From the NCBI GenBank assembly GCA_036253495.1, contig GCA_036253495.1_4125.1: a stretch of 64,000 nucleotides of DNA; one strand, 5' to 3'. This document shows, one piece after another, positions 2,819 to 17,512 of this stretch. The first letter of the stretch is position 1. The number at the start of each line of letters is the position of its first letter. The notes beneath the pieces are model-generated. The model was not told the DNA's origin. It ran no database searches and saw only the letters and a list, made by a program, of their open reading frames with translations. Source of the stretch: a phage. The position numbers were made by a program, and so were the translations under genes.

Positions 2819-2854
2819 ATGTACATACCAACACGGAATAACTGGAGAAACAAA

Positions 2855-3130: not shown

Positions 3131-3151
3131 CTATCTTAAAGAGTAAATGCA

Positions 3152-3736: not shown

Positions 3737-3744
3737 AAAAGATT

Positions 3745-3916
3745 AAAAAAGGGATTGACTCCAGTCAGTCCCTTTGCTATTATATAGTCATTGAGAGATA
3801 ACTCACTGACCCATAGGGTGCATAAGTGTATCTATAATATAAGTATTGTCAGTACTGAAAACTATTTTAAAAAAGTACTTGCATTGTACTTAGAATCAAG
3901 TATAATGTTTTATATC
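3745..3916 (+). repeat. intergenic regulatory module, copy 2 of 3
   Basis: same hairpin/promoter block and second TTGCAT promoter as 441-616. Confidence 0.8.
3751..3783 (+). terminator. hairpin terminator with embedded promoter
   Basis: GGGATTGAC...GTCAGTCCC + TTT; TTGACT 3755-3760, N17, TATTAT 3778-3783. Confidence 0.55.
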
Positions 3917-3939
3917 GAGAGGGGGAAACGGTTCTCCCT
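3879..3939 (+). promoter_or_regulatory. early promoter + leader hairpin
   Basis: TTGCAT 3879-3884, N16, TATAAT 3901-3906; hairpin 3920-3939. Confidence 0.7.
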
Positions 3940-3958
3940 GGCAATAAGGAATAAAATC

Positions 3959-4180
3959 ATGACTACAATGACTTGCATTTACGCTTCCAATCTTCTGAAT
4001 GATGCGGCCTTTAATGTTGATTCAGAATATCAATGTTATCGGGATGAAAATAAAAAAGTTTTTGTAGTTGATAATAATGGTTTCCATATTGAATTGCAAT
4101 CCGGCTTCACTGGCGTTGATGGTAAATCAGTATGGGGCGTACAGGATGATAAAGGTACATATCATTTTAAACGTAATTAA
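3959..4180 (+). CDS. hypothetical protein, 73 aa
   Basis: start re-set from 3791 (track ORF reads through promoter and hairpin); SD AAGGAATAAAATC. Confidence 0.65.
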   Translation: MTTMTCIYASNLLNDAAFNVDSEYQCYRDENKKVFVVDNNGFHIELQSGFTGVDGKSVWGVQDDKGTYHFKRN

Positions 4181-4183
4181 GTA

Positions 4184-4242
4184 TTGACAAAGTATCTTAG
4201 TACTGTATAATAGTTTACATCAAGGGGAGAATAGTTCTCCCC
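4184..4242 (+). promoter_or_regulatory. early promoter + leader hairpin
   Basis: TTGACA 4184-4189, N16, TATAAT 4206-4211; hairpin GGGGAGAA/TTCTCCCC 4224-4242. Confidence 0.75.
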
Positions 4243-4263
4243 GATACTAAAAGGAATAAAATC

Positions 4264-4671
4264 ATGACTACTACTAATCAAGCTCGGTCCATCGCCAACG
4301 ATAAAAATCATGCTGCAATGGTCGCTGGTTACATTGAAGCTATGCAATTCAGTACTGTACACAATGAGAACGGCGAATACCTGGAAGATTATGAATTATC
4401 AGAGCAAGCCCATCAAGCGGCAGTGATTGCATGTTCACGTTTCCTTGCTGTACATGGTGAAGATATGGAAACAGTACAAAAACACCATAATCCTGATTAT
4501 ACTTATAATCATGCAGGTCATGATCTCTTTCTTACTCGCGAAGGTCACGGTACTGGCTTTTGGGATCGTGATATCGGTCACTATGACGATGTATTCACTA
4601 AGTACTGCGAAGAAATCAACGTTTGCGATCCCTATGTAGGCGATGATAATCTAATCTATATGGGCGAATAA
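4264..4671 (+). CDS. hypothetical protein, 135 aa
   Basis: track ORF; SD AAGGAA; His/Gly-rich segment GHDLFLTREGHGTGFWDR; no family named. Confidence 0.75.
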   Translation: MTTTNQARSIANDKNHAAMVAGYIEAMQFSTVHNENGEYLEDYELSEQAHQAAVIACSRFLAVHGEDMETVQKHHNPDYTYNHAGHDLFLTREGHGTGFWDRDIGHYDDVFTKYCEEINVCDPYVGDDNLIYMGE

Positions 4672-4677
4672 AAGTAC

Positions 4678-4736
4678 TTGACAAAGTATATCAGTACTGT
4701 ATAATAGTTTACATCAAGGGGAGAATAGTTCTCCCC
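4678..4736 (+). promoter_or_regulatory. early promoter + leader hairpin
   Basis: TTGACA 4678-4683, N16, TATAAT 4700-4705; hairpin 4718-4736. Confidence 0.75.
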
Positions 4737-4758
4737 ACCAATAAAAGGAAACAACATT

Positions 4759-5031
4759 ATGTCAAGCTACTCCGCTACTATGATCATTAAAGATATGAAC
4801 GGTAATCCTACTTCTGCTGGTGGATCATTTGGAAACATTAACTTAGATGGTCGGTTATCAATGGAATCAGCCATCAATGCAGCGAAAGAAGTTTTTAAGA
4901 ATGAATGTACTGTAAGCAAGCTAGATTATATGGGCTTCGCTATCGAGAAAACTAAACGTTTTGTGGACTACAAAAATCCACTAATGATTGATACTAACCT
5001 GAAAGCTAACGAAGTGGAATACTTATTATGA
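4759..5031 (+). CDS. hypothetical protein, 90 aa
   Basis: track ORF; SD AAGGAA. Confidence 0.7.
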   Translation: MSSYSATMIIKDMNGNPTSAGGSFGNINLDGRLSMESAINAAKEVFKNECTVSKLDYMGFAIEKTKRFVDYKNPLMIDTNLKANEVEYLL

Positions 5032-5219
5032 CAGTTGAAGAAGTTAAAAAAGTACTGGCAGTACTACGCTATCATAATCATTGCAAGGTGAAGAATGATC
5101 CTGATTATGTTGATTCATCCCTGGAGGAAGACACCTTAAACGCGATAAGCCATATGCAAACATTAGCAAAGCGTATGACCGAAAAGAATAGGCCGGACTA
5201 TATCGGAAATAAAATTTAA
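5028..5219 (+). CDS. hypothetical protein, 63 aa
   Basis: ATGA overlap with upstream stop. Confidence 0.6.
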   Translation: MTVEEVKKVLAVLRYHNHCKVKNDPDYVDSSLEEDTLNAISHMQTLAKRMTEKNRPDYIGNKI

Positions 5220-5226
5220 AAAGTAC

Positions 5227-5288
5227 TTGCATTGTAGTTAGATTAAAGTATAATGTTTTATATCGAGAGGGGGAAATGGTTTCCCCTC
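5227..5288 (+). promoter_or_regulatory. early promoter + leader hairpin
   Basis: TTGCAT 5227-5232, N16, TATAAT 5249-5254; hairpin 5267-5288. Confidence 0.7.
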
Positions 5289-5306
5289 AAGTCCAGGAGA
5301 TACACC

Positions 5307-5570
5307 ATGAACACTATCGAAATCACTATTAATGCTCACGTATACGACAACGTAGTACTGCAAACTACTATGACCGCTAACGATACCAGTACTTTGCGGA
5401 ATACTGTTATAAGTGCTGTATGTGCCGCTATCGGTGATGTATCCCTGGAAAATGCAGAACACATCAACAACGGTTTCACTATGTGCAAACGTGATAACGC
5501 AAAACATATCATCGTAGAAGGTTACGGCGGTGTAGAATATAACCTTTATATGAAAAAAGTACTTGCATAG
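5307..5570 (+). CDS. hypothetical protein, 87 aa
   Basis: start re-set from 5253; SD CAGGAGA. Confidence 0.65.
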   Translation: MNTIEITINAHVYDNVVLQTTMTANDTSTLRNTVISAVCAAIGDVSLENAEHINNGFTMCKRDNAKHIIVEGYGGVEYNLYMKKVLA

Positions 5571-5619
5571 TAACTAAAACAAAGTATAATGTTTTGCATA
5601 GGGGGAGATATCCTCCCCC
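5563..5619 (+). promoter_or_regulatory. early promoter + leader hairpin
   Basis: TTGCAT 5563-5568, N16, TATAAT 5585-5590; hairpin GGGGGAG/CTCCCCC 5601-5619. Confidence 0.7.
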
Positions 5620-5638
5620 ACTAATAAGGAGTACTACG

Positions 5639-5863
5639 ATGGCTAATCATGATGAACTGATTCGGGAAGTAGCTAACCTGGCGGCAGAAAAGAAATCATT
5701 TGATTCTATCTATAACACCGCTCACCGTGATTCAGTACTGGCATGTAATCAGGATCAAAAAGATGAACTGATCGCAACCTATCATGAAGCATGGAAGTAT
5801 TACCGTCAATGGGAGAAAGAAGAAAAAGCATCAACCATAAGAGGATTAAATAATCTAGTATAA
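5639..5863 (+). CDS. hypothetical protein, 74 aa
   Basis: start re-set from 5594; SD AAGGAG. Confidence 0.65.
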   Translation: MANHDELIREVANLAAEKKSFDSIYNTAHRDSVLACNQDQKDELIATYHEAWKYYRQWEKEEKASTIRGLNNLV

Positions 5864-5915
5864 CAATAAAAGGGGATGATAATATCCCCTTAATAATTTC
5901 TATAATAGGTTAACA

Positions 5916-6182
5916 ATGAAAAAGAAAACAACATATCGCTATAATAAAAATTATCAATCCGTTGTATTAGATCACTCTATGCTCCCGCTCGTTGTCCCTG
6001 CCGTTGGTGTAGTCTATCAATCCATATACTGGTCAAGGAAACAACAAAAGTACTTAAAAGGCCCACTAGCACGTTATGAGGGTAACGGTGTATGGTCCGA
6101 TCCGTTACATCCAATCACTACGCGTTATATTGAATATTTTCCTTATTGTGACTACATTGAAATACATCCTAAATTTAATTGA
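5916..6182 (+). CDS. hypothetical protein, 88 aa (paralog of 6263..6520)
   Basis: shares LP(L/V)..P..G..Y......Y.GNG.W.DP..PI....DYIE pattern with next gene. Confidence 0.65.
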   Translation: MKKKTTYRYNKNYQSVVLDHSMLPLVVPAVGVVYQSIYWSRKQQKYLKGPLARYEGNGVWSDPLHPITTRYIEYFPYCDYIEIHPKFN

Positions 6183-6187
6183 TAGTA

Positions 6188-6241
6188 TTGACAGTACTAA
6201 CTGATAGTGTATAATGTTTTGCATAGGGGGAATACTCCCCC
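6188..6241 (+). promoter_or_regulatory. early promoter + leader hairpin
   Basis: TTGACA 6188-6193, N16, TATAAT 6210-6215; hairpin GGGGG/CCCCC 6226-6241. Confidence 0.7.
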
Positions 6242-6262
6242 AATATTAAAAGGGGAATCATC

Positions 6263-6520
6263 ATGGAACAATTCACACAATATCGGGTAAATCCTCAAGC
6301 TATGGCCTACGTAGAAGACCATAAAACGTTACCAGTACTGCAACCAGTTAAAGGCCGTATCTATCGTGGCCTTGCATGGAATACGGCCCAGGATGGATAT
6401 AAAACCGTTGCCGTGGGGATGTATTGCGGGAATGGTGAATGGTTTGATCCTAACAATCCGATTGCACTTGACAGTACTGAAAAAATGAAATGGGCCGACT
6501 ATATCGAGGATATCTCATAA
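6263..6520 (+). CDS. hypothetical protein, 85 aa (paralog of 5916..6182)
   Basis: track ORF; SD AAAGGGGAA. Confidence 0.7.
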   Translation: MEQFTQYRVNPQAMAYVEDHKTLPVLQPVKGRIYRGLAWNTAQDGYKTVAVGMYCGNGEWFDPNNPIALDSTEKMKWADYIEDIS

Positions 6521-6526
6521 AACTAT

Positions 6527-6587
6527 TTGACAGTACTATCATATAGTGTATAATGTTTTACATAGAGCGGGGGAATAGTTCTCCCGC
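6527..6587 (+). promoter_or_regulatory. early promoter + leader hairpin
   Basis: TTGACA 6527-6532, N16, TATAAT 6549-6554; hairpin 6567-6587. Confidence 0.7.
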
Positions 6588-6609
6588 CAATAGTTTGGAG
6601 TAAAACATT

Positions 6610-6810
6610 ATGTCAATCGCTATCGCCCTGGTTGAAGTACTGAAAGAAGCTAAAGCTAACCTGATCGACGTAAAGATCCAGGAACTACAATCCGGCTTAA
6701 TCGGCTGTACTTGTACCGCTGGTGGGGCGACAGATTATCGTGAATTCGAATCACTCGAATCTATGGTTCGGTATCTTACAATGATCGTGGAAGATTGGAA
6801 GATCATCTAA
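6610..6810 (+). CDS. hypothetical protein, 66 aa
   Basis: track ORF; SD TGGAG. Confidence 0.65.
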   Translation: MSIAIALVEVLKEAKANLIDVKIQELQSGLIGCTCTAGGATDYREFESLESMVRYLTMIVEDWKII

Positions 6811-6828
6811 CAAAAAAGAATAAAAAAA

Positions 6829-6861
6829 GGGATTGACTCCGGTCAGTCCCTTTGCTATTAT
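6829..6861 (+). terminator. hairpin terminator with embedded promoter
   Basis: hairpin 6829-6850 + TTT; TTGACT 6833-6838, N17, TATTAT 6856-6861. Confidence 0.55.
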
Positions 6862-6973
6862 ATACGCATAGACAAAAACTAGCCCACAGGGTGCATAGGT
6901 GTATCTAAAATATATAGTTAATAACGGTGAGTAACTATCTGCTGGTGGAGTGAAAACTATTAATAAAAAACTA

Positions 6974-7001
6974 TTGACAAAGTATAGCAGTACTGCAATA
7001 A
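6974..7001 (+). promoter_or_regulatory. sigma70-like promoter (weaker -10)
   Basis: TTGACA 6974-6979, N16, CAATAA 6996-7001. Confidence 0.5.
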
Positions 7002-7055
7002 TGTATCTCGTAGGGCGGCAATGGTGCGACGGTCCACAAAGTTAGGAGATTCAAA

Positions 7056-7388
7056 ATGAGTACTTCAATCGCTATCGTAAACGCTTTCATCCGTACCAAT
7101 GTTTCATCTGTATTCATTGACGGGCTGGATCGGGAAGTAGAATACTCAATCATTATCGCACAAACTGCAAACGGTGCTCGGTATATCCTCAATGATAGTG
7201 AAGCAAATCACTACTACTACACTAAAGCTACTGGCTTTAAACGCATCGATGCGGACGTAGTATACGCTAAGATGAATAAGCTGGTAGACAAGATTAACGC
7301 TAAAGGTACTATCGATTTACAGTACTGGACCGAAACCGATCCAGAATATGGATCACATCGCTACCTGAATCCAGGTATTAAAATGTAA
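7056..7388 (+). CDS. hypothetical protein, 110 aa
   Basis: track ORF; SD TAGGAGA. Confidence 0.7.
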   Translation: MSTSIAIVNAFIRTNVSSVFIDGLDREVEYSIIIAQTANGARYILNDSEANHYYYTKATGFKRIDADVVYAKMNKLVDKINAKGTIDLQYWTETDPEYGSHRYLNPGIKM

Positions 7389-7395
7389 AAAGTAC

Positions 7396-7457
7396 TTGCA
7401 TAGTACTTAGTAAAGTGTATAATGTTTTACATAGAGAGGGGGAAATGGTTCTCCCTC
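7396..7457 (+). promoter_or_regulatory. early promoter + leader hairpin
   Basis: TTGCAT 7396-7401, N16, TATAAT 7418-7423; hairpin 7436-7457. Confidence 0.7.
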
Positions 7458-7477
7458 CTAAATTAAGGAGTTTTATC

Positions 7478-7879
7478 ATGACCTTCTCAATCACTTCTTA
7501 CGCTGACGTTTTAGTACTGGCTCGGACTTTTGGTAAAGATGCACTGGAGTACGCTGTAAGTAATGGTACTATCCAACCGGAGCAGTGCCGCATCATTGGA
7601 AACTGCAAACGTTGGGCGGTATCCAATACTATTGCACTGGAAAACTTCAACGATGGCAACAATGAATATTCTGTTGATGTAGTATTCGAAGCCGTTGATC
7701 TCGGCGGTATCTATAACACTAACCTGAATGATGTGCGTATCGTTCGCACGGGGTTCGGTGCTTATGATGTATCTATTCGTGAAGCTATGAACACCGGATA
7801 CATTAGCAAGGACTTACTTGCTCACATCATGCAGCTGTGGACGGAACGTAACGAAGCACGCACTATCTTAGGACTGTAA
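7478..7879 (+). CDS. hypothetical protein, 133 aa
   Basis: start re-set from 7415; SD AAGGAG. Confidence 0.7.
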   Translation: MTFSITSYADVLVLARTFGKDALEYAVSNGTIQPEQCRIIGNCKRWAVSNTIALENFNDGNNEYSVDVVFEAVDLGGIYNTNLNDVRIVRTGFGAYDVSIREAMNTGYISKDLLAHIMQLWTERNEARTILGL

Positions 7880-7947
7880 GCATTACACATCACCAAACAT
7901 CATAGGCCGCTCTCTAGCGGCCTTAACTATATCAGGAGTACACACAC

Positions 7948-8157
7948 ATGATCTATACAGTATACAGCGTTCTAGGTACTATTGCAGGCGTACACGATAA
8001 CGTCAATGATGCTATGCGTACAGTACTGCAACAGGTTCCACTAAAGCCTAAGACTATTAAGCAGATGACAGCACGACTAACCAGGGCAAAGGCTGGCGGT
8101 GAAGTCTGGCAGGACTACGCGGATACGCAGATTATCATTGCAGTAAGTAATGATTAA
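7948..8157 (+). CDS. hypothetical protein, 69 aa
   Basis: track ORF; SD CAGGAG; preceded by hairpin AGGCCGC/GCGGCCT 7904-7923. Confidence 0.6.
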   Translation: MIYTVYSVLGTIAGVHDNVNDAMRTVLQQVPLKPKTIKQMTARLTRAKAGGEVWQDYADTQIIIAVSND

Positions 8158-8201
8158 TGAATTAAATGATTCAGTACTAAAACTATTAGTCAGAAAATAA
8201 T

Positions 8202-8230
8202 CGGTGCATTTTTAAAATGCATCGTTTTTT
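8202..8230 (+). terminator. rho-independent terminator closing the small-gene region
   Basis: CGGTGCATTT/AAATGCATCG stem followed by T6. Confidence 0.75.
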
Positions 8231-8339
8231 ATTTTAACCAGTACACTATAACGTATGAAATAGTTTCGACCTGTTATTATAACTTAGGGCAACTAGGGGC
8301 GGGTAATTGCTTAGCTCGTGTGAAGGGGTTCATAGGGTA

Positions 8340-8367
8340 TTGACTTTTTATATGAATCGTGTATTAT
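8340..8367 (+). promoter_or_regulatory. promoter of the family A array
   Basis: TTGACT 8340-8345, N16, TATTAT 8362-8367. Confidence 0.6.
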
Positions 8368-8397
8368 ATGATTGATATTAATTTTAAGGGAGTCCCT

Positions 8398-8595
8398 ATG
8401 CGTATTTTAACACAAGAAGAGCATCACGAAAGACTTATCAATAACATGGCTATGATAATGTATAAGTCTCATAAACGTGGTAATGCCTATAAACGTGAAT
8501 TAGTTATGGAACTATTCTTAGGAACTAACTTACAAAATGAATATGTTAAACTATATGTAAAAGAGTTATGTTTAGAGATAAATGGTAAACTATGA
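8398..8595 (+). CDS. family A (LGTNYQ-motif) paralog A1, 65 aa
   Basis: start re-set from 8359; SD AAGGGAG; motif FLGTNLQNEY; ATGA overlap with A2. Confidence 0.7.
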   Translation: MRILTQEEHHERLINNMAMIMYKSHKRGNAYKRELVMELFLGTNLQNEYVKLYVKELCLEINGKL

Positions 8596-8792
8596 AAATG
8601 CGTACATTAACTCAAGATGAATATCATCATATACTACGTAAAAACACGGCAAGAATTTACCAAAGCAATGTGCACTTAGAAAGAGTTGAGTTGTACCTGT
8701 TGATTACGATGGGAACAAACTATCAGGAAGTGTGGATAACTCACTATTTGGAATCTTTGAAAGCTGACATACGAGCTAGGAGAAAACTATGA
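8592..8792 (+). CDS. family A paralog A2, 66 aa
   Basis: motif TMGTNYQEVW; ATGA junctions; about 80% aa identity to A3. Confidence 0.75.
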   Translation: MKMRTLTQDEYHHILRKNTARIYQSNVHLERVELYLLITMGTNYQEVWITHYLESLKADIRARRKL

Positions 8793-8989
8793 AAATGCGT
8801 ACATTAACCGAAAAAGAATATCAAGCTCTACTACGTAAAAACATGGTAAGGATTTACCAAAGCGATGTGCACTTAGAAAGAGTTGAGTTGTACCTTTTGA
8901 TTACAATGGGAACCAACTATCAGGAAGCATTGATATCGAAATATTTGGAATCTTTGAAAGCTGACATACGAGCGAGGTGCAAACATTGA
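8789..8989 (+). CDS. family A paralog A3, 66 aa
   Basis: motif TMGTNYQEAL; long DNA stretches identical to A2. Confidence 0.75.
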   Translation: MKMRTLTEKEYQALLRKNMVRIYQSDVHLERVELYLLITMGTNYQEALISKYLESLKADIRARCKH

Positions 8990-9195
8990 AAATCATAACA
9001 CAGACACAAGCATTTGGTCGTATATTGAAATACCTTGATGACATGATAGATATACATAGTGACCTCCCTAAAACTGTAATCGACGCCAAAAGAGCAGAAT
9101 ATCGCATGATGGCTGTACTGAACACAAACTTTCAGGAAGAGTATGTCAATGATTGGATTGGATTTTTAATTGAAGATATAAAGAGTAAACTATGA
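8977..9195 (+). CDS. family A paralog A4 (non-ATG start)
   Basis: motif VLNTNFQEEY; GTG 8977 or, by family alignment, TTG 8986 forming TTGA overlap with A3 stop. Confidence 0.6.
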   Translation: MQTLKIITQTQAFGRILKYLDDMIDIHSDLPKTVIDAKRAEYRMMAVLNTNFQEEYVNDWIGFLIEDIKSKL

Positions 9196-9404
9196 TTATA
9201 TTAACACCAGAGCAATATAGGAAACGTTACAATTCTAAGCAGATTGAAATCTTGCTGATATATGCAGACAGGGATGATGTATACTTATCAAAAGTTATGG
9301 AAAAAGAATTACTTATGGGTGTCTTCTTAGGAACTGACCACCAGAAATCTTATGTCCAAGAGTATCTAATAGCTCTTGAGAAATACATCAGGAGTAAACT
9401 ATGA
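9192..9404 (+). CDS. family A paralog A5, 70 aa
   Basis: motif FLGTDHQKSY; ATGA overlap. Confidence 0.7.
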   Translation: MIILTPEQYRKRYNSKQIEILLIYADRDDVYLSKVMEKELLMGVFLGTDHQKSYVQEYLIALEKYIRSKL

Positions 9405-9625
9405 ACTGCATTAATAACTTTGAATACGAGGCTCGCTCAAGGTGTGCATCTCAAAAAGAGAACCACATTTACTTCACTATGATGTACTTATCTTGGAATG
9501 AAATTGAAGAAATGGTTGCTGAAGTATGGCTGTTTGAATTCATGGGGACGCAGTATCAGAATAGGTTTGTGGGTGAGTATCTTAATGTTCTTATGAAACA
9601 TATAGAAAGAAAGGGAATGAACTAA
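9401..9625 (+). CDS. family A paralog A6, 74 aa
   Basis: motif FMGTQYQNRF; ATGA overlap. Confidence 0.7.
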   Translation: MNCINNFEYEARSRCASQKENHIYFTMMYLSWNEIEEMVAEVWLFEFMGTQYQNRFVGEYLNVLMKHIERKGMN

Positions 9626-9876
9626 TGAAAGTATTATCAAGCACTGAGTATCAATCTGCCCTATTCTCTTTACTAAACACCCTTCGCAAGAACAATGAAC
9701 TTTATCCTTCCCCTGAGAATGATGTAGTTAATGGTGACGTGTTTCTACTTAAATTCGTTGGAACTAATAAACAAGATATCTTCACTGATCGTTATATCAA
9801 TGCACTAAGAAACCTTGTAGCGTATAAAACCCGCCAGGCCAAAAGAGAATGGAAGAGACAATGCGATCCAGAATAA
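9625..9876 (+). CDS. family A paralog A7, 83 aa
   Basis: motif FVGTNKQDIF; TAATG overlap. Confidence 0.7.
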   Translation: MKVLSSTEYQSALFSLLNTLRKNNELYPSPENDVVNGDVFLLKFVGTNKQDIFTDRYINALRNLVAYKTRQAKREWKRQCDPE

Positions 9877-10109
9877 ATCACATCATGTACGTTAAACTAT
9901 TTCAGAAACTAATCCACAAACACTATGATACAGTATCTGATAAACTCACTAATGATATCAGCAGACTTATTCACTGTGAAGCAGAGATGCTTGTACTGAT
10001 GACGGGAGACGATACACAAACAATCTCTAAGGCAATAGAGAACTATCTGGAAGCATATCAACAACATATAAGAACGGAAGTCTGGAGACGAGAGAATGAA
10101 AATCCTTAG
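9849..10109 (+). CDS. family A paralog A8 (divergent)
   Basis: degenerate motif LMTGDDTQTI; alternative start ATG 9861. Confidence 0.5.
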   Translation: MEETMRSRINHIMYVKLFQKLIHKHYDTVSDKLTNDISRLIHCEAEMLVLMTGDDTQTISKAIENYLEAYQQHIRTEVWRRENENP

Positions 10110-10311
10110 TGGGTATGAATATTACAGGCTGTTGCGAACTATACAAGCAAAAGTTTCTAGTATTTCTTTAAACAAATCTATTGCACAAGTGGACAAATGT
10201 GTTATAATAACTGAAATGAAGCTATCTATCTTCATTGGGACAAACTATCAAAGCATCTACACTGACGCATGGTTAGCAAGTCTACGTAACAAGGTGATAT
10301 CCAGAGAATGA
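10096..10311 (+). CDS. family A paralog A9, 71 aa
   Basis: motif FIGTNYQSIY. Confidence 0.7.
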   Translation: MKILSGYEYYRLLRTIQAKVSSISLNKSIAQVDKCVIITEMKLSIFIGTNYQSIYTDAWLASLRNKVISRE

Positions 10312-10526
10312 AAAAATTACAAGGTTTTGAATATATTAAGCTTCTGCAAACCTGTGAAATCCAAAGAAGAAAGATTCAAAAGGCTAAAAGAATTACCGCA
10401 GAACGAAAGTTTACACTGATAACTGAAGTCTATGTAGAGGCACTCTTAGGCACAAACTATCAACAAACGTATATAGACCTATGGATTGATGCACTCCAGA
10501 AAGAGGTTAAAAGTAAATGCAAATGA
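10308..10526 (+). CDS. family A paralog A10, 72 aa
   Basis: motif LLGTNYQQTY; ATGA overlap. Confidence 0.7.
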   Translation: MKKLQGFEYIKLLQTCEIQRRKIQKAKRITAERKFTLITEVYVEALLGTNYQQTYIDLWIDALQKEVKSKCK

Positions 10527-10741
10527 TTAATTTAAGTAAAGATGAATATTATGTACGTCTTGCAAAAACTTATTCATTACGCAAGGCCATTTATGAAAGT
10601 CACATTATTGAACAATCAAATAAGTGGATTGTAGTAAATGAAATCAAGATGCTTTCAGTCTTAGGAACAAACTATCAAGCGAGTGCTGTACTGAAGGTCA
10701 TTAATGCACTTCAAAATGAGGTCCAAAGTAAATGCAAATGA
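10517..10741 (+). CDS. family A paralog A11, 74 aa
   Basis: motif VLGTNYQASA; junction AAATGCAAATGA. Confidence 0.7.
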   Translation: MQMINLSKDEYYVRLAKTYSLRKAIYESHIIEQSNKWIVVNEIKMLSVLGTNYQASAVLKVINALQNEVQSKCK

Positions 10742-10995
10742 TCAATTTAAGTCAAGATGAATATAACGAGCGACTTGCAAAAATCTCACCTAAACGTAAT
10801 GCAATCTATCACAGCCAAGAAATTCAACACAGTAAGAAGATGATTATGTTTCGTGAGTTAAAGATGGGTGTCTTCTTAGGAACAAACTATCAAGAGACAG
10901 AAGTAAATCGCGTCATAACCGAGTTACTCATGGAAATCAGAGGTAAGCTGTACTTTCATCAAATGACCCAACCACTGAGGTGTAATGAGAAATGA
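10732..10995 (+). CDS. family A paralog A12, 87 aa
   Basis: motif FLGTNYQETE; junction AAATGCAAATGA; N-terminus close to A11. Confidence 0.7.
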   Translation: MQMINLSQDEYNERLAKISPKRNAIYHSQEIQHSKKMIMFRELKMGVFLGTNYQETEVNRVITELLMEIRGKLYFHQMTQPLRCNEK

Positions 10996-11228
10996 ATAAA
11001 ATTAATAACATCAACTTAGCAGAAAGATTTGATAGAATTGGGGAAGCTCTGAGAAGATACGATAAAGCATATGGTCATTTAAGCTTTACCATAGAAACGA
11101 GATATGCCCTTGAAGAAGAGTTTAAAATGCATAGTCTCTTAGGCACACAGTATCAAAAACAATATGTTCAAAAATGGATTGAATGTTTAATCCAAACAAT
11201 TCATGTGAGGAACATAAAATGCAAATGA
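10992..11228 (+). CDS. family A paralog A13, 78 aa
   Basis: motif LLGTQYQKQY; ATGA overlap. Confidence 0.7.
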   Translation: MNKINNINLAERFDRIGEALRRYDKAYGHLSFTIETRYALEEEFKMHSLLGTQYQKQYVQKWIECLIQTIHVRNIKCK

Positions 11229-11473
11229 TATACTTAACAGACGATGAAATAAAAGAAAGAATAATTAAATCCAGAAAACATACAAATCAACTGCCAAAAG
11301 ACCCAAATCAAACCCCTGCTGAAAGGAGTGCAGAAGTATTATATCAACAACTCCTGTACTTTCTTGGAACTGATAGACAGGATTATTATGTTCGATCGAT
11401 TCTTAGATATCTTAAAATGACTATTCAGGAAAAGATACATGACCAAATATATAAAAATCTTAACAGTCAATGA
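11219..11473 (+). CDS. family A paralog A14, 84 aa
   Basis: start re-set from 11183 to the MQM start at the AAATGCAAATGA junction; motif FLGTDRQDYY. Confidence 0.65.
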   Translation: MQMIYLTDDEIKERIIKSRKHTNQLPKDPNQTPAERSAEVLYQQLLYFLGTDRQDYYVRSILRYLKMTIQEKIHDQIYKNLNSQ

Positions 11474-11690
11474 ATATCATAAGATTATCATGAAGACTAA
11501 TATTGAGAATTCTAAAAAATCAAATACCAAGTACATTCTGGAACACACATTTGAAGAACGACAATTAGCTTTAGTTGAAGCAAAACTTCTTGCACTATTA
11601 GGGACTAACTATCAAGACGAGTACGTAAGAAAACTAATATACCTTTTAACTAAACACATCAGGAAAAGAAATGCAGCACTTGACAGATGA
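11439..11690 (+). CDS. family A paralog A15, 83 aa
   Basis: motif LLGTNYQDEY. Confidence 0.7.
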   Translation: MTKYIKILTVNEYHKIIMKTNIENSKKSNTKYILEHTFEERQLALVEAKLLALLGTNYQDEYVRKLIYLLTKHIRKRNAALDR

Positions 11691-11880
11691 CGAATACGGT
11701 GTTATCATCCTTGATGTTATCAATAAAGAATACCATAGGAAACAACGATACGCTTGTTATGAAGATAAACAGCTTTCTATAGCTGAACAACAATTAGTTC
11801 ATTTATTAGGAACAAACTATCAAGAACAATGCACTGAACGTTACCTGTATCTACTGTCGAGGAAAACACAAAGATTATGA
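11671..11880 (+). CDS. family A paralog A16, 69 aa
   Basis: motif LLGTNYQEQC. Confidence 0.7.
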   Translation: MQHLTDDEYGVIILDVINKEYHRKQRYACYEDKQLSIAEQQLVHLLGTNYQEQCTERYLYLLSRKTQRL

Positions 11881-12092
11881 AAATTTTAAGCGAAGGTGAT
11901 GAAGTAATATTACTTATAGAGAATTCAAGTAAATTCTTAAACATATCACTGTCTGATATAGATGAAGATGACAAAGAAGTACTGAGAGCAGATTTAAGAG
12001 TACTGTTACATCTCGGAACAAACCTACAAGAACAATTTGTTGAGGACTACATCAATGAACTTAAAGAATCAGTACTGAGAAGATGCAAATGA
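11877..12092 (+). CDS. family A paralog A17, 71 aa
   Basis: motif HLGTNLQEQF; ATGA overlap. Confidence 0.7.
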   Translation: MKILSEGDEVILLIENSSKFLNISLSDIDEDDKEVLRADLRVLLHLGTNLQEQFVEDYINELKESVLRRCK

Positions 12093-12325
12093 AAATCATT
12101 TCACCTACTGAATACAACCAACTATTAAGTAGTTTAATTCCAAAGTTGCATCGTAGCTGGTCAGCAGAATTATCACAGGATGAAAAAAATATTCTAATAA
12201 GTGAAATCTATGTTCTAGCTACTATAGGAACTAACTATCAAGAACACATCATCGTGGATTATATTAATACACTTAAAAGGGTAATACAATTAAAATGCAC
12301 AGACAGCACATACACAAACCCCTAG
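12083..12325 (+). CDS. family A paralog A18, 80 aa
   Basis: motif TIGTNYQEHI; junction GATGCAAATGA. Confidence 0.7.
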   Translation: MQMKIISPTEYNQLLSSLIPKLHRSWSAELSQDEKNILISEIYVLATIGTNYQEHIIVDYINTLKRVIQLKCTDSTYTNP

Positions 12326-12525
12326 GAACAGCAGAATACATTGAACTAATGGCAGCAAACTTCTCATCCTTTCAGAAACTGAGGCAAGAATCAAATAATG
12401 ATTTAGAATATCATATCAAAAGTTCAGATTTAAGATTGTTACTCACTCTAGGAACAGACAGTCAGTACAAATTCGTACAGGAGCATATTAGAGCACTTTT
12501 AAATGGCATCAGGGATAAACTATGA
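12295..12525 (+). CDS. family A paralog A19, 76 aa
   Basis: motif TLGTDSQYKF. Confidence 0.65.
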   Translation: MHRQHIHKPLGTAEYIELMAANFSSFQKLRQESNNDLEYHIKSSDLRLLLTLGTDSQYKFVQEHIRALLNGIRDKL

Positions 12526-12737
12526 AGGAAATATCAAATCAAGAGTACTTGGCACTATTCAGAAAAAATAAGAAAGAATTTATTGTACTTGATACAAGAA
12601 CTGATATAGGGGAACTTGAAAAAAATCTTTTGCGTTCAGATATGATAGTACTGATACTCTTAGGAACACAGCATCAAGAAAGAACTGTTAATTCACACAT
12701 AGAAATACTTAAGAAGCTTATACAGGAAAAGTTATGA
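12522..12737 (+). CDS. family A paralog A20, 71 aa
   Basis: motif LLGTQHQERT; ATGA overlap. Confidence 0.7.
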   Translation: MKEISNQEYLALFRKNKKEFIVLDTRTDIGELEKNLLRSDMIVLILLGTQHQERTVNSHIEILKKLIQEKL

Positions 12738-12955
12738 GAATCATAACACAAAAAGATATGTTTAAGTTAGCAAGGGATCATGCATCTGAAATTGATGCTA
12801 TAGTATCAAAAAGTTACAATGACCCTTATACACAAGATGTACACTACAATGAATTATGGGTGTATATACTTTTAGATACAAATTATCAAGAGCAAGCAGT
12901 ACAGAGGTATTTGAGTGCTTTAAGTACTGCTACTGCTAATGGAATAGGTGTTTAA
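12734..12955 (+). CDS. family A paralog A21, 73 aa
   Basis: motif LLDTNYQEQA; ATGA overlap. Confidence 0.7.
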   Translation: MRIITQKDMFKLARDHASEIDAIVSKSYNDPYTQDVHYNELWVYILLDTNYQEQAVQRYLSALSTATANGIGV

Positions 12956-12957
12956 AA

Positions 12958-13299
12958 ATGAAAACTAATATTCAACTTAAGGTTTATAAATCATTTGCAA
13001 GTACATATATCAAATGCAGTCTATGTAAAGATGTAATGGACTACAAAGGTAAGCCATTCACGATTACTTACGATTCTACAAGAGGTTTTTATATATCTTT
13101 TGCTGATTACAAATATAACATGTACGAACACATTGACATTGAAGATTTAAGTACTTTATCTGAAGAAGAATACTTTCAAGAATCATTAGTATGGGATTTA
13201 GAGTTTCCTATGCCATTGGTACATAAGATGATAGTACTAATAAAAGAAACTAAACAGGAGCCTAATAGTGCTTATGAAGAACACATTATTGAGTACTGA
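12958..13299 (+). CDS. family B (FQ-motif) paralog B1, short form, 113 aa
   Basis: motif EEEYFQESLVWD. Confidence 0.75.
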   Translation: MKTNIQLKVYKSFASTYIKCSLCKDVMDYKGKPFTITYDSTRGFYISFADYKYNMYEHIDIEDLSTLSEEEYFQESLVWDLEFPMPLVHKMIVLIKETKQEPNSAYEEHIIEY

Positions 13300-13302
13300 A
13301 CC

Positions 13303-13533
13303 ATGAAAAGATTATCATTCGAAGAGTACTGCAAGCTTATTAATACTTTACAACCACAAATAAAACAAATAAATTCTCTTCCTATATCCCAAGAAGAACG
13401 TGCAGTACTGAAAGATGAGTTAATTTTAAAATGCACAGTAGGTACTAACTATCAAGCTGATAGTGTTCGTTATCTAATTTGGGGTTTAATGTGCATAATA
13501 GAGAACAAAGCAGTTGACAGTACTCTAATGTAG
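13303..13533 (+). CDS. family A paralog A22, 76 aa
   Basis: motif TVGTNYQADS. Confidence 0.7.
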   Translation: MKRLSFEEYCKLINTLQPQIKQINSLPISQEERAVLKDELILKCTVGTNYQADSVRYLIWGLMCIIENKAVDSTLM

Positions 13534-13542
13534 TGCTATAGT
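13514..13542 (+). promoter_or_regulatory. sigma70-like promoter
   Basis: TTGACA 13514-13519, N17, TATAGT 13537-13542. Confidence 0.6.
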
Positions 13543-13582
13543 GTCAGTACTTTTTCGAGCGTTAAAATATAGGGTACAGATT

Positions 13583-13828
13583 ATGTTAAAATTTTTAAAT
13601 TTCCTTATCGTCTTGTGTATTGTTCTTGGGATTGCACCGTTTGTATTAGCGTATCTGGATTCAGATGAAATGCACAAGATGAATTGCACAAAGACAGGAC
13701 AGAGTAGAAAAGAGACGGTTATGATGCCCGTAACGGTTATTGTGAATAACATGCCGATTACAAACATGGTCCCTACCCTAACGACAACGTACCAGTACTC
13801 TTGTGATGACGGAGAGAGGTGGAGATAA
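13583..13828 (+). CDS. small membrane-anchored protein, 81 aa
   Basis: start re-set from 13541; N-terminal MLKFLNFLIVLCIVLGIAPFVLAYL hydrophobic helix. Confidence 0.55.
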   Translation: MLKFLNFLIVLCIVLGIAPFVLAYLDSDEMHKMNCTKTGQSRKETVMMPVTVIVNNMPITNMVPTLTTTYQYSCDDGERWR

Positions 13829-13835
13829 TGCGATA

Positions 13836-14162
13836 ATGCGTAAGATCAATTGTATAAAAAGAGCGAATACATGTTTCATTGCGTTGACCAATGTACCGGG
13901 TGGGTCTGGTGTTAAGATATTTGAGTACAATAAAGTTGATAATTGTTTCTATTGGGTAGAAGGTATCAAATCATATGAAAATACGATAGCAGTACCGAAT
14001 CTAGTTGATATCTCTGAAGAAGAAGAGTTTCAGTACATGTTAGTACACGATGATTCTTTTGGGTTGACATACAAAGAGATGAAGGAAGTACAAAGGCAGA
14101 TGATATCATGTATGAATATTTCTAAGCATTTCCTTCAAAATATTCATCCAATTTACGTATAA
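13836..14162 (+). CDS. family B paralog B2, short form, 108 aa
   Basis: motif EEEEFQYMLVHD; ATG 13836 chosen by alignment with B1/B3 N-termini (track GTG 13803). Confidence 0.65.
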   Translation: MRKINCIKRANTCFIALTNVPGGSGVKIFEYNKVDNCFYWVEGIKSYENTIAVPNLVDISEEEEFQYMLVHDDSFGLTYKEMKEVQRQMISCMNISKHFLQNIHPIYV

Positions 14163-14171
14163 GAGATTAAT

Positions 14172-14507
14172 ATGAAATTCAACATTCATAGAATTAATTC
14201 CGGTTGTATATTTGCTTATACGCATGAGAATTACAAGAAGTACATGAATCATGAAGTACATTATGTTTTTGAGGACGGTAAAGAATATTTTGCTTATTTG
14301 AGTCCCAGGAGTTTAGGTAAGTACGAGTTGCTTCAGGATCTTTCTCTTATGCAGGAAGATGAATTATTTCAGTACAGTCTAATTCATGACCCTTATATGT
14401 TTGATATAGATATTATGTGCAGTTTACAGAAGAGGATGAAAGAAGTTTGGGATTCGATTAAAAGAGGTGATTGTATAGAATATGATAGTATACAAGAAGA
14501 TGCCTAA
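14172..14507 (+). CDS. family B paralog B3, short form, 111 aa
   Basis: motif EDELFQYSLIHD. Confidence 0.75.
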   Translation: MKFNIHRINSGCIFAYTHENYKKYMNHEVHYVFEDGKEYFAYLSPRSLGKYELLQDLSLMQEDELFQYSLIHDPYMFDIDIMCSLQKRMKEVWDSIKRGDCIEYDSIQEDA

Positions 14508-14700
14508 CGGATATGAATTGAAGTACAGACATTTTATTCGAAATGTAGATTCAGATCCTTTTAATGTTAAAATGGCAGAGTTCGATTTATTATTTTATCT
14601 AGGAACGAGAGCACAGCCACAATTCGTTGATGCATACATAAGGGCTTTACGAACAGAGATAGTATGCACACCAAAGGAGTCTAAATGTACAAAAATGTAA
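14500..14700 (+). CDS. family A paralog A23, 66 aa
   Basis: motif YLGTRAQPQF; ATG 14500 fits family length (track 14482). Confidence 0.6.
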   Translation: MPNGYELKYRHFIRNVDSDPFNVKMAEFDLLFYLGTRAQPQFVDAYIRALRTEIVCTPKESKCTKM

Positions 14701-14942
14701 ACCATCATTTGTACGCATCAAAGTACAGGGATTTTTGTTTACAAGGGGGCGATGAAGATTTTGCTTTGCGATTATCGGAATTTAATATGTTATTTTATCT
14801 TGGTACATCAGTACAAGAAGAAATGGTACAGAAATTTATCAAGCACCTTGAACGAAAAATTCATACGCAAATTTTGGTTGTTAAGTTACAGAATGAGATA
14901 AATGAATACAATGCAGAATCTAACAATAGTACAGGATCTTAG
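14685..14942 (+). CDS. family A paralog A24, 85 aa
   Basis: motif YLGTSVQEEM. Confidence 0.65.
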   Translation: MYKNVNHHLYASKYRDFCLQGGDEDFALRLSEFNMLFYLGTSVQEEMVQKFIKHLERKIHTQILVVKLQNEINEYNAESNNSTGS

Positions 14943-15303
14943 ACCAGTAATAATGATGTTAAATGCAAGACGAGATTTATGGCACGAAATGCATAACAAG
15001 AAGGATTCATTTGCACAAATCAATTTAGTCTTTCAGGAGTTAATCCAGAGTGCATTGGATGTTATTGAACCAAAATACAAAGATGGTATATTCTGTGTAA
15101 AGAATGCAGTTCGTCCTCATGCAATTCCAAGGAAAATTAAGTTAGCTAGATTAACATTTGACGAGAGGGATTTCTTCAGTTATAATCCCAGTACAGCTTT
15201 ATATTTTATTCCTGATTCAGACAAATATCATCCTATCCATTACGGATGGATTATGTCTTATATAGTAAATGAAACGGAATACCCTATTAAATGGGAAAGA
15301 TGA
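14902..15303 (+). CDS. hypothetical protein, about 130 aa (start uncertain)
   Basis: track ORF; no family motif. Confidence 0.55.
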   Translation: MNTMQNLTIVQDLRPVIMMLNARRDLWHEMHNKKDSFAQINLVFQELIQSALDVIEPKYKDGIFCVKNAVRPHAIPRKIKLARLTFDERDFFSYNPSTALYFIPDSDKYHPIHYGWIMSYIVNETEYPIKWER

Positions 15304-15479
15304 TGATAGATGTTAAGACATTAAATGCATTACAGGATTCATTATTAGATAGTATTAAGCTGTATTACAATATGCATTTGAGGGGTGGTATCAATGATTA
15401 CAATTATTATTTGAGTGTAATTATATTTGAGCATCTTTCAGTACAGGATAGAATTTTACACAAGTACAAACATTATTGA
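15300..15479 (+). CDS. hypothetical small protein, 59 aa
   Basis: ATG 15300 gives ATGA overlap with upstream stop (track 15291). Confidence 0.5.
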   Translation: MMIDVKTLNALQDSLLDSIKLYYNMHLRGGINDYNYYLSVIIFEHLSVQDRILHKYKHY

Positions 15480-15490
15480 GGAAACAAAAT

Positions 15491-15850
15491 ATGTTCAATA
15501 AAATCATGTTCATTTTAACATTTGTGTTTTTATCATTCACAAACACCGCTCATGCAGTACATGCAGAACAGGCATCATCGGATGTACCGTTATATGAAAC
15601 ATACAAATTTGATTGCAGATTGCAGAATAATGAAATAATCAATATCTTTTTACACAATACAGAAGTACCTTATTTGCAGATTGAAGCAACGAAGTACATG
15701 TATTATGGTACGAATTCGGTACAGGAATTTTTATTCAAACACACCAATCAGGATGTAATTATATCATTGCAGTACGTTGATAGTTCATTGTCTTTAATGC
15801 ATTTCAAGAATGCAGAGGGATTAGTTACAGTGCTCAAATGCTATAGGTAA
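15491..15850 (+). CDS. secreted/periplasmic protein with signal peptide, 119 aa
   Basis: SD GAGGA; MFNKIMFILTFVFLSFTNTAHA then VHAEQ (AxA-type cleavage site). Confidence 0.65.
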   Translation: MFNKIMFILTFVFLSFTNTAHAVHAEQASSDVPLYETYKFDCRLQNNEIINIFLHNTEVPYLQIEATKYMYYGTNSVQEFLFKHTNQDVIISLQYVDSSLSLMHFKNAEGLVTVLKCYR

Positions 15851-15856
15851 TAATAT

Positions 15857-16372
15857 ATGAATGAAATTGAATTATTAACGCACAAGATTAGTACAATAAT
15901 GCTTATGCTCAAAAATAATCATCCTATACATAAGTACATTGATATAGATGAATTACGCATAGAAGATAGGCATGGTAAATTATCGTTTATGTTTCACAAT
16001 GCAAATAATGCAGGGAATGTTAACGTTTGTATTGCAGCATTTACCCAAGCCAATCCAGTACAAACATCTCCTGTTGTATACGAAAATAAAGAAGGGTATT
16101 TGTGGGTAAACACAAACGATTATTTCTTTTATGATTTGAAACAAGATGATGAAGTAGAAGAACGAATTGATTTAATTGATATTAGTACAGATTGTAGTGC
16201 TGAATTATTTCAGAAATCGTTATTATATAGTCCTCGTCAAATGCATTATCTAAAGTTATTCAGTTCATTGTACGCGAATCCTTTAATTAAGGGTTTTAAA
16301 TTTTATATAAAAGTTCCTGACATTCAAGCAGTTTATGATATTTTGATGCAAGGATATAGTTATGAAGTATAG
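15857..16372 (+). CDS. family B paralog B4, 171 aa
   Basis: motif SAELFQKSLLYS. Confidence 0.7.
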   Translation: MNEIELLTHKISTIMLMLKNNHPIHKYIDIDELRIEDRHGKLSFMFHNANNAGNVNVCIAAFTQANPVQTSPVVYENKEGYLWVNTNDYFFYDLKQDDEVEERIDLIDISTDCSAELFQKSLLYSPRQMHYLKLFSSLYANPLIKGFKFYIKVPDIQAVYDILMQGYSYEV

Positions 16373-16670
16373 AATGCTCTATACAAAAGATATGATTTAT
16401 GTTGAATTAGAAGGCGATGAAGACGGTTGGAATTTGATTTATTCATGTAGTTCAGGTTGGTACATGGCACATTTAAATGATAACGAAGTCACAGATTATT
16501 TTGTAGATTTCAATACATTATCCGACGAAGAATTGTTTCAACAGCAATTAGTGATTGACACAGGTGGATATGATGTGTTATTATTAAAAAAGATACAGAA
16601 AGCTGTTATGAATTTTAATGCCCAGGTATCCGAATGGGAAAGGAAATATTATGACCTCGAAGTACAATAA
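16362..16670 (+). CDS. family B paralog B5, short form, 102 aa
   Basis: motif DEELFQQQLVID. Confidence 0.7.
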   Translation: MKYRMLYTKDMIYVELEGDEDGWNLIYSCSSGWYMAHLNDNEVTDYFVDFNTLSDEELFQQQLVIDTGGYDVLLLKKIQKAVMNFNAQVSEWERKYYDLEVQ

Positions 16671-17486: not shown

Positions 17487-17512
17487 GATATGGGCTTTTT
17501 TACGTTTTGGTA

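Follow-up and report, generated by a model that had tools for sequence, protein, structure and literature searches.

The hexameric palindrome AGTACT is the commonest hexamer in a 64,000-nucleotide (nt) stretch of jumbo coliphage DNA (contig GCA_036253495.1_4125.1 of assembly GCA_036253495.1, hereafter the window), and it is missing from a block at positions 8179-11977 that comprises the first 16 genes (A1-A16) of an array encoding the LGTNYQ family of proteins of ~70 amino acids (family A). This block, designated island 1, is old and fixed in position, and the data support counter-selection, i.e. selection that keeps the full palindrome out of it: the one-sided variant TGTACT is enriched in island 1, conserved between related genomes and never aligned to AGTACT. 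A second and larger block (island 2), which a preliminary description made from the letters of the window had missed, lacks the trinucleotide ACT on its coding strand. On balance it seems probable that island 1 represents the first early operon, from which the binding site of a dimeric DNA-binding factor would be excluded by selection, and that island 2 would owe its composition to immunity against an ACU-recognising ribonuclease (RNase).

The window originates from a PBECO4/121Q-like phage of the genus Asteriusvirus, a 350-kb phage of E. coli. Escherichia phage A4 provides the nearest record (94.6-97.1 % identity); further phages of the genus reach 82-86 % identity over part of the region. 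The comparisons were made within a set of seven Asteriusvirus genomes of shared ancestry (the window, A4, slurp01, 121Q, G17, Ecwhy_1 and Turkey3), with Klebsiella phage fENko-Kae01, a member of another genus, and Xanthomonas phage XaC1 added for wider comparison, each scanned over positions 1-50000. The assembled 355-kb genome of A4 was used for genome-wide counts.

AGTACT is a hyper-abundant and conserved palindrome

An exact search found 213 copies of AGTACT in the window, in comparison to 18.3 +/- 3.9 copies expected from dinucleotide shuffles. In the A4 genome the hexamer was present in 922 copies (120 expected) and the octameric palindrome CAGTACTG in 224 copies (3.7 expected), which corresponds to an about 60-fold excess. 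The density of AGTACT in A4 was 6-8 per kb in the left 20 kb, ~3 per kb in the small-gene arrays and 1.3-2 per kb in the replication and structural regions. The sites in the window had symmetric flanks, with C at position -1 in 108 and G at position +6 in 103 of the 213 copies. The motif occurred in all three reading frames as well as in spacers, and its imprint was visible at the level of codons and dipeptides: Ser-Thr dipeptides numbered 744 (487 expected) and were written AGT-ACT 386 times (108 expected), and Val-Leu was written as (A)GTA-CTN 258 times (47 expected). Between the window and slurp01 or 121Q, 85-91 % of the AGTACT sites were conserved versus 47-54 % of the sites of other hexamers, and no one-mismatch neighbour of AGTACT showed the depletion to be expected from repair-driven change. 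The motif (C)AGTACT(G) is thus functional and under purifying selection: it is hyper-abundant, imposed through the choice of synonymous codons, and conserved.

AGTACT was also the top-ranked hexamer in fENko-Kae01 (204 copies versus 16.7 expected in 50 kb) and in XaC1 (312 versus 16.7). Since it is shared by phages of Klebsiella and Xanthomonas, the signal is old and independent of the host, which points to a reader encoded by the phages themselves. No publication on this motif was found in literature searches.

In the first 8 kb of the window many copies of AGTACT overlap the core of sigma70-like early promoters, and three registers were seen: TTGAC-AGTACT, AGTAC-TTGACA and AGTACT-g-TATAAT. 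Such promoter-embedded copies were found in the intergenic DNA between 551 and 7407 (e.g. at 1049, 1317, 4199, 4693, 6193, 6532 and 6989) and also at 13519. AGTACT does not behave as an avoided restriction site, being over- and not under-represented genome-wide. The usual signature of restriction-site avoidance was displayed by several GC-containing hexamer palindromes, among them GGATCC, GCATGC and GGTACC, all of them absent from the window with 4-6 copies of each expected. The phage carries a gene for a Dam-family N6-adenine methyltransferase. A gene for a C5-cytosine DNA methyltransferase (A4 record, 292647-294545) is split by an intein comprising Hint and LAGLIDADG domains.

The presumed first operon of the unique region contains no AGTACT

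Exact string search confirmed the observation of the preliminary description that no AGTACT occurs between the copies at 8173-8178 and 11978-11983, and that only near-misses are found there; the search gave TGTACT (six), AGTACA (two) and AGTACG (one). The flanking density, given in the preliminary description as about 6 per kb, was established at 6.36 per kb on the left and 7.68 per kb on the right, so that 24-29 copies would be expected locally. The probability of a gap of at least 3805 nt was 3e-11 to 2e-13 at these local rates and 2.6e-7 at the rate of the window with the two large islands excluded. The expectation is different when it is based on the composition of the island itself, which predicts only about 1.2 copies; the anomaly is thus one of missing enrichment or of exclusion, and not of depletion below the random level.

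Both ends of the island were correctly located in the preliminary description. It starts at the terminator and the promoter P1 preceding A1 (Table 1) and ends inside A17 (open reading frame 11877-12092). The left edge corresponds to the inner boundary of a direct terminal repeat (DTR) of ~20 kb. In G17, for which DTRs of ~20 kb have been described (PMC6563267), the repeat boundary (position 350150 of the record being equivalent to position 1) maps to ~8300 in the window, 38 nt upstream of the -35 motif of P1. Phage fEgEco12 has a DTR of 20,993 bp confirmed by restriction digests (PMC13070987), and its family A genes begin just past this repeat. By homology with G17 and fEgEco12, positions 1-8300 of the window belong to the terminal repeat, and the unique part of the genome opens with island 1. 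A site equivalent to P1 was present in slurp01, 121Q, G17 and Ecwhy_1.

At the right edge two AGTACT sites in the A17 orthologue were conserved in five genomes, and in the two genomes that have no A17 the empty stretch extended to the orthologue of A20. The putative internal promoter P2 matched the consensus at 11 of 12 positions in all seven genomes and was separated from the first AGTACT by 300 nt in five of them and by ~1075 nt in the other two. Judging from the predicted promoters, island 1 would correspond roughly to the first transcription unit beyond the DTR, extending from P1 (8340) to about P2 (11680).

The same succession was observed in all seven genomes: a flank with 6-8 AGTACT per kb, a stretch of 3.8-5.7 kb with none, 11-17 sites within 1.8-2.7 kb and then the ACT-free unit. 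The orthologous proteins have diverged across these genomes, those of family A from the island to 58-76 % identity and a protein from the ACT-free zone to 39 %. In fENko-Kae01 an AGTACT-free block of 2.5 kb starts at the annotated DTR end and contains different genes. The empty block is therefore old and positional. In the corresponding fENko-Kae01 island (19737-21976) AGT was the most depleted triplet (15 versus 44 expected), a partial mirror image of the ACT ban described below; AGT depletion was absent from island 1 of the window.

Family A proteins are four-helix proteins according to an AlphaFold2 model (predicted local distance difference test score, 97) and match PHROG 4148, of unknown function. 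A17 and A20-A22, which belong to the same family, strand and array as the genes of island 1, carry ~7 AGTACT per kb. A smaller gap over the family C copies C1-C4, likened to island 1 in the preliminary description, does exist (49243-50362, 1119 bp), but it is statistically ordinary and the link is unsupported, as five gaps longer than 1 kb, the two large islands included, were found in the window and about four were expected.

One-sided variants of the motif are retained in island 1

Island 1 contained 5-11 copies of TGTACT per genome versus ~1 expected, a 6-9 fold enrichment. CGTACT and GGTACT were not found in island 1 of the seven Asteriusvirus genomes (fENko-Kae01 has one of each), AGTACA was not enriched, and AGTAC was present on the coding strand in 0-3 copies versus 4.5-6.5 predicted by composition. 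The TGTACT sites of the window mostly retain the C...G flanks and differ in position between the paralogues. TGTACT was conserved at 16 of 18 aligned sites, in comparison to 28-33 % for other hexamers, and it was never aligned to AGTACT. In the conservation of TGTACT and the lack of any exchange with AGTACT two forces are visible, one favouring the motif in general and the other locally vetoing the complete palindrome.

The context of Val-Leu codons led to the same picture. The base preceding GTA-CTN was A in 239 of 336 cases (71 %) outside island 1, and T in all 22 cases inside island 1 of five genomes (3/3, 5/5, 3/3, 5/5 and 6/6). Val-Leu dipeptides were found 7-16 times per island 1, a third to half of them written GTA-CTN, and Ser-Thr dipeptides only 1-3 times per 1100-1900 codons. 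The preference for TGTACT over AGTACA may reflect the constraints of the family A proteins, in which Val-Leu is common and Ser-Thr rare. Taken by itself the zero carries little weight, and active exclusion is argued from these TGTACT data; of the two explanations put forward in the preliminary description, a young block or a counter-selected word, it is the latter that they support.

Genome-wide, the one-sided variants showed a mild coding-strand bias, which was flipped in blocks of minus-strand genes. The half-site polarity of the two islands was mirrored, with GTACT only in island 1 and AGTAC only in island 2.

Island 2 is a predicted transcription unit free of ACT

Contrary to the preliminary description, the motif does not return throughout the family B array: a stretch of 6.8 kb (13800-20587), beginning 1.8 kb beyond island 1, is free of AGTACT and covers the first 10-11 family B genes. 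No ACT was found on the + strand between 13797 and 20268 (133.6 expected); the second-longest stretch of the window without ACT measured 270 bp. The single ACT between P3 and 20267, at 13797, lies inside an AGTACT. The absence of ACT was the strongest word anomaly detected, with a Poisson probability of 1e-53 in the window and 1e-59 in the whole A4 genome, and the zone is unique, as no significantly ACT-poor gene was found elsewhere in the A4 genome. AGT, the reverse complement of ACT, occurred in island 2 at normal density.

The word was avoided in every frame. As the Thr codon, ACT was used in 0 of 76 cases in island 2 versus 43 % outside. Codons for Asn, His, Asp and Tyr ended in C before a codon starting with T in 0 of 88 cases versus 33 % in other contexts, and Leu was encoded by CTN after a codon ending in A in 0 of 34 cases versus 58 % outside. 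No ACT was present in 594 nt of intergenic DNA. At the level of sequence, island 2 thus has the features of a transcript free of a nuclease site: only the coding strand lacks the word, and it does so in each frame as well as in the spacers. Island 1 does not share them, its ACT content being normal (23.4 per kb).

Family B, comprising ~40 paralogues encoded on one strand between 12958 and 53752, provided a natural control: the genes within the zone had 0 ACT and those outside it 5-19. The F-Q-x-S-T motif of these proteins was encoded with AGT-ACT outside the zone and with AGT-ACA inside. AGTAC was present in the zone at full density, the next base being A in 46 cases, G in 7, C in 2 and T in none, and the AGTACA sites of the zone were conserved at 61-71 % versus 32-51 % for other hexamers. 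The only residues that are invariant in family B, F-Q, lie within EE-x-F-Q-x-S-[TL]-[VIL], encoded by TTTCAG nnn AGTACT GTA, so that the protein and DNA motifs coincide.

The ACT-free zone was present in all seven genomes, in which it spans 6.5-8.8 kb and 14-20 genes; in fENko-Kae01 it was shorter (2.4 kb, with 2 ACT). In the seven genomes no more than ~10 nt separate the onset of the ban from the transcription start predicted for P3, and non-motif ACTs persist into the promoter spacer. Past the predicted start 14 of the ~16 remaining ACTs sit in full AGTACT sites at ~+250 and ~+500, and no more follow. At the right edge, the intergenic element listed in Table 1 contains a block TTATATTG(G/T)AGTTTA ~30 nt before the next start codon. 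The A-tract and the TTATATTG block are both kept in fENko-Kae01 (~25850-26000), and the slurp01 copy of the element lies at ~27900-28125 of the slurp01 section compared. A search of Rfam gave no match to this element, which is probably the promoter region (P4) of the next unit, a strong promoter or a leader.

The two family A-like genes of island 2, located off the main array at 14482-14700 (YLGTRAQ) and 14685-14942 (YLGTSVQ), lie within the ACT-free unit. The family B gene at 18795-19331 is the orthologue of A4_348, labelled 'DNA ligase' in the A4 record, a label for which sequence searches of Pfam and PDB gave no support. Directly after the ACT-free unit follows a CGC-poor stretch (20690-26254) with one CGC in 5.5 kb; its counterpart in A4 (27396-33427 of the A4 section compared) has none in 6 kb. 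The stretch recurs in the relatives, without being absolute, and as GCG is low as well it probably reflects local CpG poverty.

Table 1. Features of the window and the ACT-free zones of related phages
Feature	Position	Strand	Remarks
Inner end of DTR	1..8300	+	Short single-gene early units with sigma70-like promoters; AGTACT 6.4/kb, often inside promoters
Intrinsic-terminator-like hairpin and T-run	8202..8224	+	Closes the last DTR gene
P1, predicted sigma70-like promoter TTGACT-16-TATTAT	8340..8367	+	Without AGTACT; serves the family A array
Island 1, genes A1-A16 of family A	8179..11977	+	0 AGTACT
One-sided variants (C)TGTACT(G), six	9114, 9483, 9992, 10687, 10949, 11355 (9114..11360)	+	Conserved
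P2, sigma70-like site TTGACA-17-TATCAT, extended TG	11680..11708	+	Putative internal promoter inside A16
'Mid' block, A17-A22 and one family B gene	11978..13513	+	AGTACT back at ~7-8/kb
P3, predicted sigma70-like promoter TTGACAGTACT-N-TATAGT, extended TG	13514..13542	+	Left edge of island 2; in 7/7 genomes
Island 2: genes for a small membrane protein, for 10-11 proteins of family B and for two family A-like proteins, among others	13550..20267	+	ACT-free
Intergenic element of ~190 nt: UP-like A-tract AAAAAAATTTTCGC with -35/-10-like hexamers	19898..20097	+	Right edge of island 2
ACT-free zone in A4	19998-26979		Position in the A4 section compared
ACT-free zone in slurp01	19919-28131		Position in the slurp01 section compared
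ACT-free zone in 121Q	19987-27498		Position in the 121Q section compared

Alternative explanations

The preliminary description had raised the possibility that the block is young or foreign, i.e. recently acquired or amplified in tandem, so that the AGTACT signature has not yet been ameliorated. Such a reading has an analogue in cyanobacteria, where regions free of the palindrome HIP1 serve as markers of horizontal transfer (PMC3497702), and two pairs of paralogues, A2/A3 (79 % identity) and A11/A12 (51 %), are indeed relatively recent duplicates. The mean amino acid identity of the paralogues is, however, as low inside the island as outside it (24.4 % for A1-A16, 26.8 % for A17-A22 and 23.7 % between the two sets), so no younger set is apparent. 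Island 1 has an ordinary base composition, with A.389, C.156, G.182 and T.273, which is nearly that of the adjoining motif-rich block (.386,.154,.174,.286). Instead of a patchy distribution or near-identical copies, seven diverged genomes shared one empty block in a constant position, another genus also had an empty block, and the island contains conserved variants of the motif; a recent origin is thus refuted. A passive absence, in which family A would offer so few Ser-Thr, Val-Leu and x-Tyr contexts that the enrichment never took hold, agrees with the rarity of Ser-Thr in island 1 and with the composition-based expectation of 1.2-1.8 sites, against which a zero is not significant in any one genome. 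It is contradicted by the ~7 sites per kb in A17 and A20-A22, by the Val-Leu codons that are present and yet always preceded by T when written GTA-CTN, by the enrichment and conservation of TGTACT and by the same island in fENko-Kae01 with unrelated genes. This explanation is improbable and can be regarded as largely refuted.

The remaining alternatives accept that the motif is actively excluded and differ in the level at which it would be read. If AGUACU in mRNA were a cleavage or processing site, or an element of RNA-RNA pairing, the family A transcript could be kept free of it and stable. Both islands approximate promoter-delimited units of the coding strand, the bias of the one-sided variants flips with the minus-strand blocks and the neighbouring unit follows an unmistakable coding-strand rule, all of which would suit an effect on RNA. 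An RNA signal, on the other hand, needs no symmetry, and AGTACT is perfectly palindromic and symmetrically flanked even with more than 90 % of the genes on one strand. Copies of AGTACT also lie within promoter cores, ahead of the transcription start, and the normal ACT content of island 1 (23/kb) would require a second RNase with hexamer specificity, so this explanation is unlikely. A constraint acting in cis on the DNA and connected with the genome end or with replication, by which the DNA next to the DTR boundary would lack full sites or keep half-sites of one orientation, is rather unlikely as well. Its causes could be terminase cutting and DTR duplication, the stepwise entry of DNA, or the recognition of a trinucleotide in single-stranded DNA by an enzyme of the primase type, and it would also cover the ACT ban, for which such a reader of one DNA strand is the main rival to an RNase. 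Primases are the classic strand-specific readers of trinucleotides (GTC for T7; GTT and GCT for T4). In favour of such a constraint, island 1 begins at the DTR boundary in G17, in fEgEco12 and, with different genes, in fENko-Kae01; the opposite half-site polarity of islands 1 and 2 and the depletion of AGT from the fENko-Kae01 island, which mirrors the ACT ban, also speak for it. Against it stand the start of the ACT ban within ~10 nt of a conserved, predicted transcription start in seven genomes, which suits a transcript better than a DNA domain, the lack of an origin-like switch of half-site polarity in the genome, the lack of AGT depletion in island 1 of the window and the fact that the benefit of unprimable DNA is not evident.

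Proposed mechanism and candidate readers

The preferred reading combines a DNA-level factor for island 1 with an RNA-level rule for island 2. The palindromic symmetry of AGTACT and its overlap with promoter cores (the -35/-10 motifs of the DTR promoters and the conserved TTGACAGTACT of P3) favour a factor acting on DNA. The full palindrome would be the binding site of a symmetric (dimeric) protein encoded by the phage, e.g. an operator or a roadblock, and the bound factor would shut off early transcription by sitting in promoters or within transcription units. An operon in need of exemption would keep half-sites only. Two adjoining early units would thus be exempt, the second one under a stricter, strand-specific rule. 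The promoter-defined extent of island 2, its coding-strand specificity and its indifference to frame suggest that this second rule concerns mRNA, which would be immune to an ACU-recognising endoribonuclease active during infection.

Precedents for such an enzyme exist. RNases of the MazF family read words of 3-7 nt, and MazF/PemK enzymes with NACU-type specificity, including U^ACU or AACU, are known (PMC10864209; PMC7291052). The 'PhoH-like protein' of A4 (record 99101-100540) was found to be a fusion of PIN_4 (E = 1e-21) and PhoH (E = 1e-43) domains with the architecture of PhoH2. Mycobacterial PIN-PhoH proteins are reported to prefer 5'-AC[A/U][A/U][G/C] (PMC7390352), and the role of PIN-PhoH fusions in jumbo phages has been called enigmatic (PMC7824862). 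By this family precedent the PIN-PhoH protein may be considered a candidate sequence-specific RNase/helicase, as a lead only. The phage also encodes an RNA-repair set comprising an Rnl1-type RNA ligase, a polynucleotide kinase-phosphatase and an enzyme of the CCA-adding type.

Several observations weigh against this mechanism. The composition-expected number of AGTACT is 1.2-1.8 per island across the genomes, which makes the bare zero weak, and the shared ancestry of the genomes weakens it further. TGTACT is favoured over AGTACA by about 37 to 5, which a simple rule of 'no full site' leaves unexplained. Being located within a gene, P2 might be no promoter at all, and the first AGTACT follows it at a distance of 300-1075 nt; similarly, ACT returns 156-288 nt beyond the putative promoter that follows island 2. 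Many of the promoter-embedded AGTACT copies belong to near-identical duplicated promoter cassettes, and the fixed registers are consequently not independent evidence. No binding protein, methylase specificity or RNase was identified, and every mechanistic step is inferred. None of nine toxin RNases of E. coli K-12 is ACU-specific; MazF cuts ACA and ChpB cuts U^AC, both words being abundant in island 2. Other mRNAs of the phage contain ~20 ACT per kb, so an ACU RNase would need to be transient or regulated, and the PIN-PhoH gene itself has a normal ACT content (32 in 1464 nt).

Comparison with known systems

The closest parallel to the genome-wide motif is HIP1 (GCGATCGC) of cyanobacteria, an octameric palindrome in tens-fold excess, present in coding DNA in all frames, conserved among orthologues more strongly than neutrality predicts and of unknown function; regions without it are conspicuous (PMC5861425, PMC4390886, PMC3497702). 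The ~60-fold excess of CAGTACTG goes beyond 15-fold abundance and, together with the 85-91 % conservation, makes the phage motif HIP1-like. It differs in being AT-rich and confined to a phage clade instead of a cellular phylum, and no neighbour word is depleted as a repair-driven origin predicts. Moreover, the motif-free block is a conserved, positionally fixed operon with selected half-variants and not foreign DNA. Dimeric repressor operators share with AGTACT the palindrome with symmetric flanks placed over the -35/-10 motifs of early promoters, but the 922 copies distributed through coding DNA are far beyond any operator set. The nucleoid-occlusion protein SlmA recognizes a site (SBS, SlmA-binding site, GTGAGTACTCAC) that shares the AGTACT core. 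The SlmA flank GAGTACTC (GTG-AGTACT-CAC) was found in only 4 copies (observed/expected ratio 1.08), in comparison to 224 copies of CAGTACTG, and no preference for GT/AC at positions -3/-2 or +7/+8 was seen around the 213 window sites, so the motif was not considered a set of SlmA-binding sites.

Island 2 resembles the cases of escape from mRNA interferases, namely ACA-less mRNAs and MazF, and GCU-poor genes and MqsR, in that its coding strand is free of a trinucleotide in all frames and spacers through the use of synonymous and context-dependent codons. It differs in being a polycistronic phage operon of 6.5-8.8 kb conserved across the genus and beyond; island 1, with its normal ACT content, is not of this kind. 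Orientation-restricted words are known from the co-oriented EcoP15I sites of T7 and from the polar Chi and KOPS motifs, where, as here, a short word is missing or predominates on one strand or in one orientation across kilobases. Those words have 5-8 nt and their bias is genome- or replichore-wide, whereas here a 3-nt word in one operon and a local half-site polarity are concerned. Long terminal repeats of the T5/SPO1 type carry pre-early genes for host takeover, and the ~20-kb DTR described here is likewise full of tiny genes, each with its own predicted strong sigma70-type promoter and terminator, and is followed by early operons. To our knowledge, motif saturation, a motif-free first operon and a trinucleotide-free operon have not been described for those phages. 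We know of no description, and literature searches found none, of a positively selected palindrome whose full form is barred from a single conserved operon in which its half-variants persist, or of a multi-kilobase phage operon that lacks a trinucleotide on one strand.

Implications

The presence of a HIP1-like palindrome in jumbo phages of Escherichia, Salmonella, Klebsiella and Xanthomonas, where it distorts codon and dipeptide usage, makes this phage clade a small and genetically tractable system for asking what hyper-abundant palindromes do, a question that for HIP1 is three decades old. The motif-free and ACT-free operons are 'negative images' of the reader of these words, and they mark ~35 small early proteins, whose function is unknown, as those protected by the phage. 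The complete, strand-specific ban on a trinucleotide over 6.5-8.8 kb implies an ACU- or ACT-specific enzyme in infected enterobacteria, and such an enzyme, as a new sequence-specific RNase, would be of interest to RNA biology, phage defence and biotechnology.

It is possible, if doubtful, that the clade runs a genome-wide control keyed to (C)AGTACT(G), from which two early operons alone would escape and which would involve a new ACU RNase, perhaps the PIN-PhoH protein. The factor or factors concerned, a nuclease and/or a binding protein, would act on nearly every gene of the phage and possibly on host nucleic acid. If true, nature would have its own counterpart of the engineered single-protein-production system based on ACA-less mRNA and MazF.

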